DNA of 64,000 nt from an uncultured Ruficoccus sp. (GTDB lineage Bacteria; Verrucomicrobiota; Verrucomicrobiia; Opitutales; Cerasicoccaceae). The DNA is taken from NCBI GenBank assembly GCA_965140785.1, contig OZ223481.1, positions 288,001 through 352,000 of the forward strand, given 5' to 3'. Below are positions 4 through 8,097 of this stretch, piece by piece (the stretch's first letter is position 1; the number at the start of each line of letters is the position of its first letter). Under the pieces are notes generated by a model, which saw only the letters and a list, made by a program, of their open reading frames with translations, was not told where the DNA came from and searched no databases. The translations under genes were made by a program, and so were the position numbers.

Positions 4-3000
4 ATGAATTGGACTGCTACCCTATTAACTGTTGCTTGTTGCGCACCGTTGATATCCCAATCACTGCTCGCTGACAGCCTAGTGGCCACGGCCCCTACCG
101 AGTCTGTCGGGTCGAAATACCGGAAAATCGGACTCAATGGCTATCCGATGCCAGATCAGAAGCCGCAGAATGAGGCGGAAACTGATTATCAGGATGAGGA
201 AACCTATATCGATGCGCTAGATCTCACATTGCGCCACAGTGTAACGGATATTTATATTCCCATTCCCGGCAGTGACCTATCGCTATCAGTGCGAAGAAAT
301 TACAGACCGGAAACGTGGAGTGACCCAGAGGCGCAGTACTTTCTACCCGGTGAGGCCCCTGAGGATGCTTTCGGTGCTTGCTGGTCGACCAATTTGACGC
401 CTCATGTCAAGATGGAGGCTACGCAAAGCTGCTTCGGCACAAGTAGCAGCTATAGTTTCACCCGGTACATTACAGTGGTTGATGAAAATGGGGCATCGCA
501 TCGGTTTCTCATGCTGCTTCCTTCTGGAAATAGCTATGAGTTTTGGACTCAAAGCGTACAAAGTCCTGAAGGTTGGTGGATGACCTTTGATTTGAACACA
601 ATACCAGACGATGCGCTTTTTTACCCCTATCCTTCTTCTGATGAGGCCTTGGATACTCTGCAAAGTAAATTGACCTATGATCCAAATGCGGAAGAACTTA
701 CTTTTACAAAGAAATACGGGACGACTATTGTTTTTTCAGATAGTGGGTTGGGGCTCGAGGATCAGTTGAAATATACTGAAGAGGAGAATTATCTAGGGAA
801 CGCAATTGATCAGTTTGGAATCACCAGACAGCAACTTGGTGATGTTTCTAATCACCCAAAGTTTGTCGAACCATTTGGTTCTATCAATCTAGCTCGTGGC
901 CCGTCTCCAGTTTCATCCATTACGAGGAAGTCGTATCGTTATTTTAGGGCAGTATCTATTCAGGATCGCAATGGAAATTTCCTAAATTATTCTTATGATT
1001 CGGATAATTATACTCTGGTTCCAAATCACATATTTCTTAACGAGTCTATATTTCATGCGATCACGGTCCATCTGTCGCCAGGGAATACATTGCCTATATT
1101 AAGTGTTGAAGATCCATTGGGTAATGTAATAAGTTATGTATACAATGAAATTGGGTATACTTACATGGAAGCTAATGTAAGTTATGATAGGCCAATTGCT
1201 GTGCTAGATTATGTCGAAAAATCAGGCCCGGATGGTATAGAATGTAAGACAGATTATGACTACGTTTACAGCTTGGAGGCGGACCAAACACCACAGTACC
1301 TACAACCAATACGCGCTACAGGAAGCTTGAATCCTAAAGCTTATTGGAAGGAGCTTCCTGCCAGTCATATAGACATTGAGTCCATATCACAGATTGTGCC
1401 GGACGGCGCAGATGATGTTGAAGAGTATGAATACGCTTTTGAGTATGTGTTCAATGACCATATGGAGTCCTATGAAATAAATGATTCACCATATTCGCCT
1501 TTTATCGGTTACTATCAGTCCATTGGCCTTCCATCCCAAGTGTCGGCAGTCACCCTGCCCAATGGTTCGGAAGCAACATTTACATCTTATGGTCAGGTGA
1601 AGGCGGGTTTTGCGCACGGCGCCGGTGTAGAAACATTCGTTGATGGATACTTAGTGCCGAATGTGACTATCGTGGGTGATCGCGAAACTGTTGTTATCGA
1701 TACGGAAGGCAATGAACGGACATATCGATTTAAAAATTACGACTACATCAAATTGTACGAATATTTTACGGCTATCCCCAATTACCGTAACTTAAGAACC
1801 CCGCCTACGATCCTGTTTTATGAACTGATGGAGATCGTCCATCCGGGTAACCTTGTCGAGAAAGTTGTCTATGATAGTGAAGTTGGTAGCATGCCTATTG
1901 AGGTTTACGATGTTTACGGAAATAAAACTACTTTTGAATACGGTGAGCCTATCGAGGCTAATACGACTGTCCTGGGGGTAAACGGACAGAATAATACTTT
2001 TTCTGCCTACAGCCCCGACCCAACAAAGCAAATCAATGCGCTGGATGATGAGCAGGTCTTTGCCTACGATGTGGATCTGGATGGTGTCGCGCTGCATGCC
2101 CCTGCGGATTCATACCATCTGATGACAACGTTCATCGACGAGGAAAACCGCATAACATATACTCCTGTCGATGCATTGGGGCGTCGTGAGACTCAGGAAA
2201 TATATCAGCCGGATGGCTCAGGCGGTCATGAGCTTGTCCAGCGAACCCAGTATGAATATGGGCAAGACTTTGGTGGTATTGTCAAATACAAGGGTGTGGT
2301 GACGAGAGAGACCTTGGAGTCGCTTCCCGGGGATCCTGATTGGGCGGAGGATTTGGTAACCGAGTACACCTTGTACGATGAGGGGGAGGCGAATGGCTTT
2401 CCGGGTAAGATAAAGGAAATGACTGTCGATCCGGGAGGGCTGAATCTCAAGACAGTTTATACCTATGATGCGAACGGCAATCGGACATCGATGACGTCGC
2501 CACGTGCTTTTGATACCGCCGATCCGCTCTATGGGGGAAATTTTACGACCTACTATGTGTATGATGCCCGAAATCGCTTGACGGATATTGTTTATCCGCC
2601 GGCCTCAAGTGCGACTGATATGGGCGCGCCTCGCACGACCTATGTCTATGATTGGCGTGGGAAACAGGTTGGGGTGATTGACGAGGAGGGGGGCGTCACG
2701 GTTAAGCACTATGACGCACTGGGACGGCAAATTAAGGAGATTGTCGTCATGGGGCCTGCGTCCGGTTTTGATACGAGTGACCCCCAGACGTTTCTGTCAT
2801 ACACTCCCGATCAAGACGGGGTGATGCCAGACGATATCGTGACCTCGATGACGTATAATAATTTAAATGCAAAGCTGACGGAGACTGATCCGAATGGGAA
2901 CGTGACCGAGTTTTTTTATGACGATTTAAACCGCGTCATCGCCACCCGAAAGAGCACTGTCCGGGAAGTTGATTATACCAATGCGCAGGATCGTAATGTT

Positions 3001-6000
3001 CAGCCCATCACGTGGTTTTACTACGGGGAAAATAGCGGTTCGGGATCGATTTTTAAGGGGGAATCCTTCAAGCCAACTCATACGATTGATATGCGTGGCT
3101 ATCTGACGGTGGCCGAGTACGACGAGCTTTATCGATCGACGGCGGTTGCCCAGCAGTATGATCATCCGGTTAATATTACATCGCTTGATCCGCATGTCTT
3201 TCCATTAACCCCTCCAAGTATCGGTAGTCTGGCAGCCGCTGACTATGCTGTGACTACTTACACCTATGATGATGTCGGTAACCCCTTAACGGTTACGGAC
3301 GATTTAGGTAAGACGACAACGACACAGTACGATGCGCTTAATCGTCCAGTGAAAGTTATTTTCCAAGATACTTCTGAAGCTGAAACCAGGTACACATCCA
3401 CCGGGCTGAAGTATGAAAATGAAGATGAGCTAGACCGTTTGACGACAACGGAGTATGACGCAGCAGGACGAGCTGTTGCTGTCCTTCAACCGACGGTGTT
3501 CGATGCTGCCGCTGGCCAAGACGACACTCCGGAGACCACACAGGCCTATGATGCCAATGGCAATATGATTGCCATGACCAACCCATTGGAGGCCACTTGG
3601 AACTATGAATATGATGTGCGCGATCGCCGTATCAAAGAAATATTACCCGCGGTCGATTACATCAATGAGGCCGGAGGCTGGAGTGACGATAATCCTGTTC
3701 GGCCGGAGATTGAAACGACCTACGATAACGTAGGAAACGTGATTGCCGTCACTGATCCGCGCGATAAAACAACCCACACCCGCTACGACCCTGCGAAGCG
3801 ACCGATTTTTGTCATTTCGCCGTTGGTGGCTCTGGCCGACTCGAGCTCGCTTCGTCCGGTGGCGATTACCGAGTATGACCTCAACGGGAACATTCTTTAC
3901 CAGAAAACGGGTAGCTTGTCCGCTGGGGCTGATCCTGCTGAGGATACGCCTTCCGAGGTGCGGACAGAGGTTACGAACACCTGGGATGCGCTGAACCGGC
4001 TCACTGCCACAGAGGATGCGAATGCGATCGTGGTGCAAAATACCTACGACCTGGCCGGGAACCTGACGTCTGTCACAGACGGGGAGGAGCAGGTGACGAA
4101 ATTCGAATACGATGGGCTCAACCGCAATACCGTCACCGAGTACGCCGATGGCGAGCAGAAGGTTGTTGCGTTTAATGGGGTTAATCAGGTCACGCGCACG
4201 GATGAAAACGGGGTCGTCACCCGCTATGGCTACGATGACCGTCACCGCCTGGAAACAGTCGATTACGAGGACGATAGCTCCGTTGACAGAAGTTACACCT
4301 ACGACCTGGTAGGTAATATCCTCGGCGTGGAGGAGTCCGGTGACCATGGCGATTTGCGGAAGGTGAAGTATGTCTATGACGGTCTTAACCGCATTGGTGG
4401 GGAGAAGTCGGCCGGGCTCTGGCACGTGTACCGGTATGATTTGGCGGGTAACAGGTTGTTTGCGGGATACGGGGCTGCCCTGAGCAGTGATCCGGCTACC
4501 GTGGAGGCTGCTTACCAGGTGTCCTCGTCCGAGTTTGATACGCAGCTTCGCTCGACCTATGACGCGTTGAATCGCACCGCCACGATCTATGAGGATACTG
4601 ATGGTGACGGCACCTACACGACCGGCGAGCGGGAGAGTGGCTACCGTTATGACCTGGCGGGAAATATCCGGCAGAAGCTTCAGGCTAACGGGCACATCGT
4701 GCTCAAAACCTACGATGCGCTCGGGCGCGCCTCGGTCATCACGGGGCCCAATGGCACCGATACGCAGCCCCTCTACCGTTACGCTAACTTTTACGATATC
4801 TACGGCAACCTCAAGCGCATCGAGGAAACCTACCCCAGTGCGGCTGCGAAGATCGATGACCGCACGGTGACCAACACCTACGACGCGTCTAATCGCCTGG
4901 AGGTCGAGTCCATCACCCAGGGGAGCGACACGATTACCACGACCTACGCCTATGACGACGCGAACAACCGCGTGCTGCGCGAAGTGACGACCAACGAGAC
5001 TGTCGATGAGCGCAAGCGCTACGTGTATGAGAACGACCTGAACCAGCTCACCTACTGGTATGAGGACTGGGACGACGATGGCGCCTGGGATGAGGACACG
5101 GAGGTCAAGGTCGGCTTCACCTACGACGACAATGGCAACCGCGTCACGAGTACGCGGGTCGATGGCTCGTCCACGACCACGGTCACCTATGGCTATGACT
5201 GGGAAAACCGCCTGCTGAGTTTGGCTGAGGAGAAGCTGGTCTCCAATCAGGTCAACCTGCACGCCGGCACGCTGGCCACCGGGGAGCCGACGGCTGTCGT
5301 GACCTATCACTTTGTCGAAAATCAGGCCTATGCCTACGCCTACGATTATCGTACCCGGCGCGTGCTCCGGGACGAGTCCGGGGCGGACGGGGATTTGACG
5401 TATATTGTTTTCTCGGGCGGCACCAGCGCCCAGGAGTACACCGAGGCCGGGAGCGTGCCCGGTCTGGACGGAGCTGACACGCTGGCTGTCCAGTATGTGC
5501 GCGGGAGCGACTATGGGGGTGGCGTGGGGGGCATTCTTTATACCTTGCGCTCGGGGTCGGCCTCCTTTAAGCATTACAACAGTCGGGGCGACGTTGTTGC
5601 CGCGACCGATGGTTCTGGTTCTTTGACTTATCAGGCGGCTTACGAAGCCTACGGCAAGCACGGGGATACGTCTTCGTCGCAGGAGTGGGGCGATACGAGC
5701 GACCGCCAGCAGGCCAACACCAAAGACGAAGACCCGACGGGACTCCTGAACGAAGGCTTCCGCTACCGCGACCTGGAAACGGGCACCTTCATCACCCGCG
5801 ACCCACTCGGTTTCGTTGACGGCCCCAATGTCTACACCTACGTCAACCAGAATCCCTGGACCAAGTTCGACCCACAAGGGCTGGAGAAAAAGAAAGACAA
5901 AAAGAAACCAGAGCAGGAGGCTGATGGTAGTTCAAGCACTCAGGATGTGAAGACTGATAGTGTTGATGCGGGTACAAATCAATCTCCATCGGACTCAACG

Positions 6001-6615
6001 GATGCTACATCTGAAAAGGTCGGTAAGTTTAACGCTGCTACATCTGAGGCGACGAAAGCAAATGATTCCTCGGAATCTGCACGTTCTGAGGCAGAGCCAT
6101 GGATAAATGAAGTCCAGTTGTTTGGCGGGATAACAGGTACGATTGGGAAATTTATGTATGCTCATGGCGAGACTAACTTGGGAGTCTCAGTGCCGACATA
6201 TTCTGATGGCATTTTAAATACCATTTTGGATACAAAGTTATTTTTTCATGCTCAAGGAGCACTTATGGGTGGCGTTGGACCAGCTGCTGAACTTGGTGGG
6301 CAATTTGGAGGGGGACTGTCCTTCGATGATGTGGAATCAGGTTTATCTACGTTTAATACCATTCATTGTGAGGGACAAGGGGGTGTTGGCAGTACTTTTG
6401 GTATGGCCGTAGATGTCGACATTGAAAATACAGCTTTTTCAGGAGGAAAAGGAAGAGTTGAGGTTGGTGCTTCTGCTTATGGTGCTGCTGGGGCAGCAAA
6501 AAATGTTATGGTAGTAACCCCATCCTTAAGGGAGATATCGGATGCGTCTATAAAGGCACAAACCCAAATACCACTCATGTTACCATTGTGGAATCTGTTT
6601 GGAGGGGATGAGTGA
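4..6615 (+). CDS. RHS/YD-repeat polymorphic toxin with N-terminal signal peptide and variable C-terminal domain
   Basis: 2203-aa ORF; many YDxxGN/YDALNR repeats; Rhs core end FITRDPLGFVDGPNVYTYVNQNPWTKFDPQGL (DPxG at 5869-5880); hydrophobic N-terminus. Confidence 0.95.
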   Translation: MNWTATLLTVACCAPLISQSLLADSLVATAPTESVGSKYRKIGLNGYPMPDQKPQNEAETDYQDEETYIDALDLTLRHSVTDIYIPIPGSDLSLSVRRNYRPETWSDPEAQYFLPGEAPEDAFGACWSTNLTPHVKMEATQSCFGTSSSYSFTRYITVVDENGASHRFLMLLPSGNSYEFWTQSVQSPEGWWMTFDLNTIPDDALFYPYPSSDEALDTLQSKLTYDPNAEELTFTKKYGTTIVFSDSGLGLEDQLKYTEEENYLGNAIDQFGITRQQLGDVSNHPKFVEPFGSINLARGPSPVSSITRKSYRYFRAVSIQDRNGNFLNYSYDSDNYTLVPNHIFLNESIFHAITVHLSPGNTLPILSVEDPLGNVISYVYNEIGYTYMEANVSYDRPIAVLDYVEKSGPDGIECKTDYDYVYSLEADQTPQYLQPIRATGSLNPKAYWKELPASHIDIESISQIVPDGADDVEEYEYAFEYVFNDHMESYEINDSPYSPFIGYYQSIGLPSQVSAVTLPNGSEATFTSYGQVKAGFAHGAGVETFVDGYLVPNVTIVGDRETVVIDTEGNERTYRFKNYDYIKLYEYFTAIPNYRNLRTPPTILFYELMEIVHPGNLVEKVVYDSEVGSMPIEVYDVYGNKTTFEYGEPIEANTTVLGVNGQNNTFSAYSPDPTKQINALDDEQVFAYDVDLDGVALHAPADSYHLMTTFIDEENRITYTPVDALGRRETQEIYQPDGSGGHELVQRTQYEYGQDFGGIVKYKGVVTRETLESLPGDPDWAEDLVTEYTLYDEGEANGFPGKIKEMTVDPGGLNLKTVYTYDANGNRTSMTSPRAFDTADPLYGGNFTTYYVYDARNRLTDIVYPPASSATDMGAPRTTYVYDWRGKQVGVIDEEGGVTVKHYDALGRQIKEIVVMGPASGFDTSDPQTFLSYTPDQDGVMPDDIVTSMTYNNLNAKLTETDPNGNVTEFFYDDLNRVIATRKSTVREVDYTNAQDRNVQPITWFYYGENSGSGSIFKGESFKPTHTIDMRGYLTVAEYDELYRSTAVAQQYDHPVNITSLDPHVFPLTPPSIGSLAAADYAVTTYTYDDVGNPLTVTDDLGKTTTTQYDALNRPVKVIFQDTSEAETRYTSTGLKYENEDELDRLTTTEYDAAGRAVAVLQPTVFDAAAGQDDTPETTQAYDANGNMIAMTNPLEATWNYEYDVRDRRIKEILPAVDYINEAGGWSDDNPVRPEIETTYDNVGNVIAVTDPRDKTTHTRYDPAKRPIFVISPLVALADSSSLRPVAITEYDLNGNILYQKTGSLSAGADPAEDTPSEVRTEVTNTWDALNRLTATEDANAIVVQNTYDLAGNLTSVTDGEEQVTKFEYDGLNRNTVTEYADGEQKVVAFNGVNQVTRTDENGVVTRYGYDDRHRLETVDYEDDSSVDRSYTYDLVGNILGVEESGDHGDLRKVKYVYDGLNRIGGEKSAGLWHVYRYDLAGNRLFAGYGAALSSDPATVEAAYQVSSSEFDTQLRSTYDALNRTATIYEDTDGDGTYTTGERESGYRYDLAGNIRQKLQANGHIVLKTYDALGRASVITGPNGTDTQPLYRYANFYDIYGNLKRIEETYPSAAAKIDDRTVTNTYDASNRLEVESITQGSDTITTTYAYDDANNRVLREVTTNETVDERKRYVYENDLNQLTYWYEDWDDDGAWDEDTEVKVGFTYDDNGNRVTSTRVDGSSTTTVTYGYDWENRLLSLAEEKLVSNQVNLHAGTLATGEPTAVVTYHFVENQAYAYAYDYRTRRVLRDESGADGDLTYIVFSGGTSAQEYTEAGSVPGLDGADTLAVQYVRGSDYGGGVGGILYTLRSGSASFKHYNSRGDVVAATDGSGSLTYQAAYEAYGKHGDTSSSQEWGDTSDRQQANTKDEDPTGLLNEGFRYRDLETGTFITRDPLGFVDGPNVYTYVNQNPWTKFDPQGLEKKKDKKKPEQEADGSSSTQDVKTDSVDAGTNQSPSDSTDATSEKVGKFNAATSEATKANDSSESARSEAEPWINEVQLFGGITGTIGKFMYAHGETNLGVSVPTYSDGILNTILDTKLFFHAQGALMGGVGPAAELGGQFGGGLSFDDVESGLSTFNTIHCEGQGGVGSTFGMAVDVDIENTAFSGGKGRVEVGASAYGAAGAAKNVMVVTPSLREISDASIKAQTQIPLMLPLWNLFGGDE

Positions 6616-6850: not shown

Positions 6851-6882
6851 GAACCAGAAGGGGTCAGAACCAGAAGGGGTCA
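6851..6882 (+). repeat. 16-bp tandem direct duplication GAACCAGAAGGGGTCA x2
   Basis: Exact copies at 6851-6866 and 6867-6882. Confidence 0.9.
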
Positions 6883-6958
6883 TGTCAATAATTTAAATGT
6901 TGGTTGCTGTCTGACTTGTGTAGTTATTCTAAATTATTGACATGACCCCTTCGGGTTC
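6867..6958. repeat. Palindromic element, copy 1 (MITE/REP-like)
   Basis: Perfect 23-bp inverted repeat 6873-6895 / 6930-6952, extending to 28/29 bp (6867-6895 / 6930-6958), around a 34-bp spacer. Confidence 0.9.
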
Positions 6959-7139
6959 AACATCTACGTTCATGGCCGGCTTCGGTGTTGGATACAACAC
7001 CGAATTCAACGCTGATGCTAGTGGCGACTTAAGTCTTTCTGGGCATTATCTTACGATGCCATACGAGTGCGGAAGCCTTGCTGGATCAATTATGTCAGAG
7101 TCAAAAAAGAAATTTTCGGATAATGAGGATGATGAGTGA
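6942..7139 (+). pseudogene. Orphan, 5'-truncated toxin C-terminal remnant
   Basis: Open frame of Gly/aromatic beta-strand character ending ...DDE*; same stop/start junction as the main Rhs; its ATG lies inside the palindrome arm. Confidence 0.55.
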
Positions 7140-7453
7140 TGAATATATTGTTATATACGCTGATGCTTTTTTTTATGGGGTGGGTGCTCGTTTTTAAGGT
7201 TATTAGATTGAATGCATCTTTGTTTGGTGTTGTGTCTAATGTTCTTATGATGAATATAGCCGCGCTTTTGTGGGTTATTATTGGGTCTGTGTTAAAATTT
7301 CCTATATATACATTTAATGGGACGTTGAGTTCTTATGACTTCGTTGAGCCAGGACTGATTTTGTGTGTTATACTAACTCCTGTTAGCGTTATTTCTTTGG
7401 CTTATTTCAAATGGAAGAAGGGTGACGAGTTTACTATTCGAAAAAAGAAATGA
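7139..7453 (+). CDS. Three-TM membrane protein, putative orphan immunity protein
   Basis: TGATG overlap with the upstream remnant; three hydrophobic segments; Lys-rich C-terminus; very AT-rich. Confidence 0.7.
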   Translation: MNILLYTLMLFFMGWVLVFKVIRLNASLFGVVSNVLMMNIAALLWVIIGSVLKFPIYTFNGTLSSYDFVEPGLILCVILTPVSVISLAYFKWKKGDEFTIRKKK

Positions 7454-7501
7454 TTACGGCTTGATGCCCCCCTTCGCCTTCCGTCCCGTCCCTTGAGGCT
7501 T

Positions 7502-7633
7502 GCCATACGGGCTGGCACAACTCGTCATTATGTCAAAATTGCGTCGTGGGAGAGTGAGATTGGCGAACGAATCGACGTGGCCGCGAGGCCGAGCAACTTG
7601 GGCATAATGGTCCGTTGTGCGCGAGCGTATGGC
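7502..7633. repeat. Imperfect 41-bp inverted repeat with dif/Xer-like boxes
   Basis: Arms 7502-7542 and 7593-7633 match at 30/41 positions, in blocks GCCATACG, GCACAAC, CATTATG and TTGC; 50-nt loop. Confidence 0.75.
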
Positions 7634-7722
7634 CCGTTCTTTTGTTTGGGGGCGTGGCGGATGGCGGCAGGGGCTGCTCCACGGAATGGGGGTTGAATCC
7701 CCCCTCTCTTATGGGAAACCCT

Positions 7723-7799
7723 GAAGGGGTCATGTCAATAATTTAGAATAACTACACAAGTCAGACAATAACCAACATTTAAATTATTGACATGACCCC
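7723..7799. repeat. Palindromic element, copy 2, inverted relative to copy 1
   Basis: Equals the reverse complement of 6876-6952 with 2 mismatches in 77 bp. Confidence 0.9.
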
Positions 7800-8019: not shown

Positions 8020-8097
8020 TGGTCGGGGCGATAGGATTCGAACCTACGACCCTCTGCTCCCAAAGCAGATGCGCTAACCAGGCTGCGCTACGCCCCG
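8020..8097 (-). tRNA. tRNA-Pro (anticodon TGG)
   Basis: Reverse complement CGGGGCGTAGCGCAGCCTGGTTAGCGC...TCTGC-TTTGGGA-GCAGA...GGTTCGAATCC...CGCCCCGACCA; full cloverleaf with encoded CCA. Confidence 0.98.

Follow-up and report, generated by a model that had tools for sequence, protein, structure and literature searches.

The hairpin at positions 7502 to 7633 of the window (the whole 64,000-nucleotide stretch of Ruficoccus DNA analysed here) belongs, by its sequence, to a family of paired, inverted dif-like sites in Opitutales. On balance, we lean towards the reading that it is an orphaned copy of this family behind Rhs toxin-immunity genes, and that such copies serve as Xer-type sites on a folded strand, recombining with sister copies and not with dif. 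This reading draws on the geometry of the hairpin and its match to the host dif, on spacer ends that change in a compensatory way, on the genes nearby and on one self-closing contig. Where intact, a copy marks the end of a unit made up of a repressor, a primase, a XerC-like recombinase, a toxin tip and an immunity gene. The window copy is likely the leftover folded-strand site of a toxin-swapping element and not a trace of phage entry, since its relatives lie behind toxin genes and some of them in recombinase-bearing mobile elements.

Paired sites in the window and the host dif

The original prediction described a hairpin of two inverted dif-like sites, and the arms stand as it drew them (7502-7542 and 7593-7633; 41 nt each, 73% complementary, 50 nt between them). 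The parts of the hairpin are as follows.

7502..7633, no strand: imperfect hairpin; when folded, spacer positions 1, 6 and 7 are paired and positions 2-5 mismatched
7469..7673, no strand: longer outer stem from fold prediction, with a C-rich left flank and a G-rich right flank, as in relatives
7510..7538, plus strand: left dif-like site, from sequence and comparison with the host dif (XerC-type arm 7510-7520, 7-nt spacer 7521-7527, XerD-type arm 7528-7538)
7597..7625, minus strand: right dif-like site, inverted, from sequence and comparison with the host dif (XerC-type arm 7625-7615, 7-nt spacer 7614-7608, XerD-type arm 7607-7597)

The left core consists of GCACAA (7515-7520), the spacer CTCGTCA and TTATG (7528-7532), and the right core, read on the other strand, of GCACAA (7620-7615), the spacer CGGACCA and TTATG (7607-7603). 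Compared with the host dif arm, the XerD-type arm carries two mismatches on the left and three on the right.

The host dif reads TTTCGCACAA TAAACA TTATGTCTAAT, and the pattern GCAYAA-N6-TTATG occurs once in the genome, on contig C39, the hairpin being on contig C10. The same dif is single-copy in four of five relatives tested and is present in further genomes of the order. Its assignment is supported by filamentous prophages that flank the site in a second genome (G001; Zot and Rep Pfam matches), together with a similar-looking prophage, as read from sequence, at dif in the window's own genome. The boxes had been likened to the E. coli dif arms; the host dif, once located, proved to carry the inner box GCACAA and not the E. 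coli-type GCATAA, so that the likeness is closer than first noted, the boxes being identical to the inner arms of the host site. As the single dif site of the genome carries these same boxes, we equate the hairpin boxes with the inner arms of dif. Moreover, at least one XerD-type arm lies within two mismatches of TTATGTCTAAT in 17 of the 19 hairpins tabulated, and the genome encodes XerD (above cut-off) and a XerC candidate (below cut-off). The hairpin itself is not a chromosomal dif or pdif site, which would consist of one linear site whose 11-bp arms are separated by a 6-bp centre; it has 7-nt spacers, paired inverted copies and degenerate outer arms.

Filamentous prophages at dif were seen in several Opitutales (G000:C39:265286-272000; G001, L025:2090-18640; G698, L090:9780-16400), with G001 carrying two, one on each side of dif, each ending in a linear half-dif site. 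Just past the dif prophage of G000, at the end of a 60% GC contig, about 30 kb (C39:276001-305856) have a GC content of 20-28%, representing either an AT-rich island or misjoined foreign DNA.

The box pair in the window is not a chance occurrence. It is the sole inverted box pair in the 4.36-Mb genome (at most one mismatch per arm; equal spacers of 5, 6, 7 or 8 nt), and in a looser scan that returned three inverted pairs it alone was free of mismatches. A profile from 16 hairpins of other genomes found the window copy as its sole significant match (E = 6.6e-6; next match 4.4) and, because the profile was built without the window copy, this beyond-chance match places the copy in the Opitutales family. 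BLASTN with the window hairpin found no second copy in its own genome or in five relatives. The contigs of three sequencing runs had no joint at the hairpin, a result that carries no weight either way. The folding energy of the window hairpin is at chance level as DNA (z = -1.05; 33 of 200 shuffles equally stable) and no better than chance as RNA (z = -1.14).

A hairpin family with compensating spacer ends

The strict 7-nt pattern was found in 3 of 301 genomes of the order and, in a larger draw, in 4 of 401 (the window's genome included), with no matches in controls; across the phylum it occurred in 2 of 401 genomes, both Opitutales. In a species-wide genome collection it matched at eight places, four of them titled Opitutales. 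Two of the eight, a Bacteroides and a Clostridium match sharing one sequence, were dropped for lack of an in-register stem. Spacer length and boxes vary within the family. In G698, where the hairpin terminates a longer element represented by about 15 pieces, the spacers measure 6 nt and the boxes occur as the variants GCCCAA and GCCCTA; this pattern was present in 2 of 301 genomes (control 0). Six-nt spacers were found in G698 and G693, and the hairpins of G152 have 5/7-nt spacers. A covariance model of 16 copies, including that of the window, matched in 13 of 150 genomes of the order, nine of them new.

Viral contigs gave no match with GCACAA boxes, two low-complexity matches with GCATAA boxes and no relative of the element recombinase discussed below. 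A metagenome scan gave six matches, mostly perfect palindromes or low-complexity sequence, of which one (L043) is of the same type. Outside Opitutales, this metagenome sequence (L043:148-240) and a Hyphomicrobiales record (L035:172-272) each contain a strong hairpin with these boxes and a mismatch at the spacer centre; no dif carrying the hairpin's boxes was found in the genome of the L035 record. A Patescibacteria record (L031:5001-5083) has a hairpin of this geometry just before the apparent tail of a recombinase gene, with a putative dif-like sequence some 190 nt away.

Across the family, the first and the last two bases of the spacers are paired between the two sites in 47 of 48 cases (16 distinct spacer pairs), by three to four different pair types per position. 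None of the 16 spacer pairs is fully complementary, and the third spacer base is paired once. When partners were shuffled, a mean of 17.4 end pairs was obtained and none of 20,000 shuffles reached 47; a reduced set of eight spacer pairs, one short of the nine planned, gave 23 of 24 end pairs against 8.9 after shuffling (2 of 20,000), although these tests overstate the signal because copies within a genome are kin. The mismatched centre of the original prediction was therefore borne out at the level of the family, as compensatory changes at the spacer ends combined with a kept central mismatch, and ends that pair around centres that never pair fully support folding of a single strand. The C box also covaries on both arms, which is partly circular as the boxes were used in finding copies. 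TTATG and CATAA form a bulge-free pairing in 15 of the 16 aligned copies, the remaining one having a mismatch, and three copies have a spacer of 6-7 nt opposite one of 11 nt. Covariation of this kind reflects single-strand pairing and fits DNA and RNA alike; the identity of the boxes to dif suggests that the folded strand is DNA. On sequence and covariation, with the fold predicted, the family hence shares with CTX-type attP two inverted dif-like sites and a mismatched centre.

Toxin genes and the recombinase-primase unit

The hairpin lies at the end of a low-GC region that contains an Rhs gene, between two inverted repeat copies and beside a tRNA gene. The neighboring features are as follows.

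4..6615, plus strand: Rhs protein of 2203 aa, with the core at about 5641-5883, the sole Rhs-core match in the genome
6612..6818, plus strand: small membrane-type ORF that overlaps the stop codon of the Rhs gene; by its position likely an immunity gene, no family match
6876..6955, no strand: palindromic repeat, copy 1, made of the ends that flank the genome's two Y1 (RAYT-type) transposase genes
6942..7139, plus strand: 65-aa ORF, possible orphan toxin-tip remnant, no family match
7136..7453, plus strand: 105-aa hydrophobic ORF, likely immunity gene, ending 62 nt before the left box
7720..7799, no strand: palindromic repeat, copy 2, inverted relative to copy 1 and 96% complementary
8020..8097, minus strand: tRNA-Pro(TGG), at the border of the low-GC region

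The DNA at the 3' side of tRNA-Pro differs in all four same-genus genomes compared, each with a different insert, as at an integration hotspot. The Y1-end palindromic repeat forms clusters on contigs C43, C39, C12, C48 and C10, and similar palindromic repeats interrupt or bound the hairpin element in G152.

The original prediction had placed the hairpin within a toxin cassette, a link that holds across genomes. We examined 17 new covariance-model matches, of which two were dif or dif-derived and the other 15 were counted. Eleven of these 15 follow an Rhs core, within about 5 kb downstream and on the same strand; three lie near a recombinase fragment, two behind other long-gene cassettes and one near none of these, so that 12 of 15 are near an Rhs core or a recombinase fragment. 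A position this near downstream of an Rhs core is rare in the window's genome (0.06% of positions), in which the sole Rhs core precedes the sole hairpin by 1.6 kb. The copy in G116 follows an Rhs gene whose core is 85% identical to that of the window. No primase match was found near any of the 17 model matches examined.

In G698 the element begins at the stop codon of two-gene cassettes, several of which have DUF900 hydrolase or carboxypeptidase-regulatory-like matches below curated cut-offs. A recombinase fragment follows in two contigs and belongs to a 340-aa family whose best score is to NCBIfam PRK01287 (XerC-like); among twenty integrase-bearing G698 contigs, no full-length member of this family was found beside the element. 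The recombinase family occurs at 13 places in 9 of 251 genomes of the order. Usually it lies ahead of an Rhs-type tip with its partner gene, and on contigs that extend far enough it comes after a CHC2/Toprim primase and an XRE repressor. The order recombinase, toxin tip, immunity gene, hairpin was found in G693 (starting from the hairpin side), three times in G152 and once in G026. Overall, a hairpin is present at 4 of the 13 recombinase loci (three of them in one genome), six loci are without one and three are cut short by a contig end. The G026 copy has its hairpin arms in reversed polarity: the XerD-type arms lie outside and the XerC-type boxes beside the loop (L145:4950-5080, G026:C88), behind the recombinase, toxin and immunity genes. 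At another recombinase locus (L138:12194-19143, G170), the recombinase is followed, in alternating orientation, by four Rhs tips and their partner genes; a phospholipase A2-like match was found in one of the tips, and no hairpin was detected.

One G152 contig (C44, 9093 nt) has a 95-nt terminal overlap and closes on itself, which fits a circle or a collapsed tandem array alike. Other copies in this genome lie between a long Rhs-like ORF with its partner gene and the next repressor-primase block or the contig end, and a long, conserved and structured stretch starts at the hairpin and precedes the genes for repressor and primase. In both G152 and G698, variable cargo gives way to conserved DNA about 170-230 nt upstream of the hairpin and not inside it; hence, no crossover was mapped to the spacer.

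Primase relatives were found in 34 plasmid records. In annotated plasmid records this gene order recurs, at times in tandem, after long genes that are Rhs-like, haemagglutinin-type or from Leptospira, and a circular Lonsdalea record of 11,289 bp consists mainly of the same primase, xerC, repressor and toxin-immunity genes. Such modules of primase, "site-specific tyrosine recombinase XerC" (PRK01287) and XRE/SymE genes, which follow toxin genes of the Rhs, CdiA-like and Leptospira kinds and are annotated as single genes in public plasmid records, share gene families and gene order with the Opitutales units but differ in that no inverted dif pair was found at any of eight primase-recombinase loci outside Opitutales (a looser single-site scan covered seven of the eight). 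The hairpin is therefore not essential to the module in general. Two Burkholderiales elements share a CACACATGACGCACGC motif upstream of the repressor-primase block (L183:7650-7680 and L184:7790-7815), a candidate origin or end motif.

The window copy departs from the intact units. In its genome (91% complete), no element recombinase was found (best matches XerC/XerD at 35%) and no element primase (best match 29% over the first third), and the copy is likely an orphan of both genes. Its fold is weak (core only, DNA; z = -1.2 to -1.6 against -4.4 to -7.2 in three Opitutales relatives), and it scores as inverted relative to the family (flanks -6.8 vs -18.6; XerD-type arms 11.4 vs -1.6). With flanks and inner arms both scoring as inverted, a flip of the whole site is indicated and not an inner inversion. 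Given the weak fold and the inverted orientation, the tie to the adjacent Rhs gene may be secondary; the copy is likely inactive or decaying, and may be what remained when a convergent unit was deleted at the neighboring repeat.

The mechanism that we propose for intact units goes beyond the sequence pattern and gene context. The site would be masked in double-stranded DNA and become an Xer-type site once a strand is exposed, for which the element primase may be responsible. The element recombinase, probably with host XerD on the conserved XerD-type arm, would then exchange one strand pair with a sister copy, and replication would resolve the strand-exchange junction. Units could in this way be excised as circles or amplified in tandem, and circles may re-enter rhs genes through homology in the conserved core, thereby swapping the toxin tip. 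The stronger version of this proposal, in which a small replicating element with its own Xer-like enzyme acting on a folded, bulge-free dif mimic forms a self-contained system that excises, amplifies and delivers toxin tips to rhs genes, we put forward only tentatively.

Related systems and competing explanations

To our knowledge, recombination on a folded strand is established only for CTX-type phages and integrons, and the hairpin family was compared with both. Like CTXphi attP(+) and CTX-type IMEX, it has two inverted dif-like sites 60-90 nt apart (PMC3089051, PMC3442271, PMC9226527), with conserved inner boxes, degenerate outer XerD arms and a mismatched or forked centre on folding; the fork of 7 vs 12 nt in the CTX attP spacers (PMC3089051) resembles the 6-7 vs 11 nt of some family copies. 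This geometry, the identity of the inner boxes to the host dif and the presence of host XerD and a XerC candidate favour a stranded CTX-type attP, that is, a folded site inserted by host XerC/XerD at the chromosomal dif, and integration of this type was what the original prediction had proposed. That proposal was not supported. For CTX to integrate, Watson-Crick or wobble pairs must form with the dif centre beside the XerC cut (PMC3089051, PMC3442271, PMC9226527), and when this rule was applied to three bases, with either strand folded and each copy set against its own host dif, none of 17 copies passed on the XerC side. The family sites, unlike CTX-type sites, thus cannot pair with the host dif centre there. 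They also differ in lying neither at dif nor on a filamentous phage, and in being tied to Rhs cassettes and an element with its own recombinase and primase. The window copy is on another contig than dif with no filamentous-phage gene found adjacent, and none of 18 window ORFs scanned had a Zot or Rep match. CTX-type elements lack their own integrase, and intact hairpin relatives encode a recombinase. Twelve of 12 purposely examined dif regions contained no convincing inverted pair, in G001 the filamentous prophages beside dif terminate in linear half-dif sites, and the viral contigs lack a match to the GCACAA pattern. The exception, and a point in favour, is G140, where dif itself is paired with an inverted degenerate copy next to an AT-rich array of small genes. 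We consider a stranded CTX-type attP very improbable. At the G140 locus (C1:727580-727689; L230:7581-7690) the inverted copy lies about 40 nt from dif, beside small genes with a GC content of 0.24-0.31, possibly a cassette stack at dif.

The integron attC site offers a second likeness, namely an imperfect two-box hairpin with an unpaired centre and a variable loop after the cargo stop codon (PMC4792948). In G698 and G152 the hairpin is repeated behind different cassettes, with many copies and two in tandem on one contig, but most contigs end there; the window's genome has a single copy. The family differs in lacking a conserved AAC triplet and an extrahelical box base, and in having boxes that are sequence-conserved and dif-like. 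The window copy has the AAC/GTT crossover triplet of the attC R box, which is not conserved across the family: the box is followed by C, G or T and itself also varies. In addition, none of the extrahelical bases of the attC L box were found. For the linked recombinases the best score is to PRK01287, at 333-418 bits, and as integron integrases they fall far below the cut-off. An attC site was ruled out by the lack of a conserved AAC, an extrahelical base and an integron integrase.

Xer-family recombinases have been reported beside immunity arrays (bioRxiv 10.1101/471110), among them polyimmunity loci (PMC3482391; Martinkus et al. 2026, as cited in 10.64898/2026.07.13.738213), and effector clusters of Neisseria are flanked by dif sites (PMC10210955). 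The rAID-1 clusters of Bacteroidales similarly combine a XerD-family recombinase, toxin-related gene arrays and repeated intergenic motifs (bioRxiv 10.1101/471110). Unlike in rAID-1 and polyimmunity loci, the toxin tips here are accompanied by a primase as well as by their immunity genes, and the repeated motif is a folded dif-like pair, a hairpin that the available parts of those sources do not describe.

Three further explanations were weighed against a folded-strand Xer-type site. A replication or control structure, in which the hairpin would be part of a 300-700 nt folded region serving as primase origin or terminus and Xer would bind without recombining, accords with the long conserved structured region that the G152 hairpin starts before the repressor and primase, with the lack of any crossover mapped inside the hairpin and with the primase being the core gene of the element. 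We nevertheless regard it as unlikely, as most copies are orphans with a primase match near none of the 17, elements outside Opitutales keep the primase without the hairpin, and a kept central mismatch with paired spacer ends is the signature of folded recombination sites (PMC3089051, PMC4792948). If instead the hairpin were a pair of ordinary Xer sites, inverted to each other and acting as double strands (as a switch for inversion or an array for accessory binding, with folding incidental), the dif-length 6-nt spacers of G698 and G693 would be expected, and the departure of the window and G026 copies from the family in orientation or arm polarity would find an explanation. Yet the two spacers are never identical (0 of 16) while their ends match (47 of 48), many spacers are 5, 7 or 11 nt long, and double-stranded exchange normally needs a shared 6-bp centre (PMC9226527); the scores of the window copy also point to a whole-site flip and not to an inner inversion. 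This makes ordinary double-stranded sites distinctly unlikely.

The remaining alternative, in which the hairpin is a chance palindrome or else an RNA structure, such as a terminator, downstream of the toxin-immunity operon, has in its favour the position 62 nt past a stop codon, two weak terminator-like matches that touch the right arm and a folding energy at shuffle level. The Rfam scan that the original prediction called for gave no credible match over the hairpin: at curated thresholds only tRNA-Pro was found in the window, and permissive settings added over the hairpin only a weak 3-nt overlap with an unrelated lncRNA model. The hairpin does not have the features of a structured RNA or an intrinsic terminator, only weak partial terminator-like matches being found; its loop of 50-70 nt, the T-run not kept in relatives, the inversion of the window copy relative to the family and boxes identical to the host dif, needless for an RNA, all argue against this reading, which we consider the least credible and scarcely probable.

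The acquisition of Rhs toxin tips is usually ascribed to unspecified recombination with orphan modules. The literature covered, with subscription papers largely outside it, contains no description of this hairpin with Rhs genes (Martinkus et al. 2026, Current Biology, may bear on this), nor of an element formed by the primase-recombinase-toxin module. Integrons have been speculated to have a Xer-like, phage-like origin, and CTX is noted to be without an integrase of its own (PMC4792948); a folded site together with an element-coded Xer-like enzyme would make the question of integron origin directly testable. The window copy, likely a relic, has its value as a pointer to intact units. Reading the family as folded-strand Xer-type sites, it points to a concrete vehicle for toxin tips, composed of primase, Xer-like recombinase, tip and immunity gene, with a testable DNA site. 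If true, the self-contained system would be a natural intermediate between CTX-type attP, which relies on borrowed enzymes, and integrons, which have their own, and would represent a dedicated vehicle for the exchange of polymorphic toxins.
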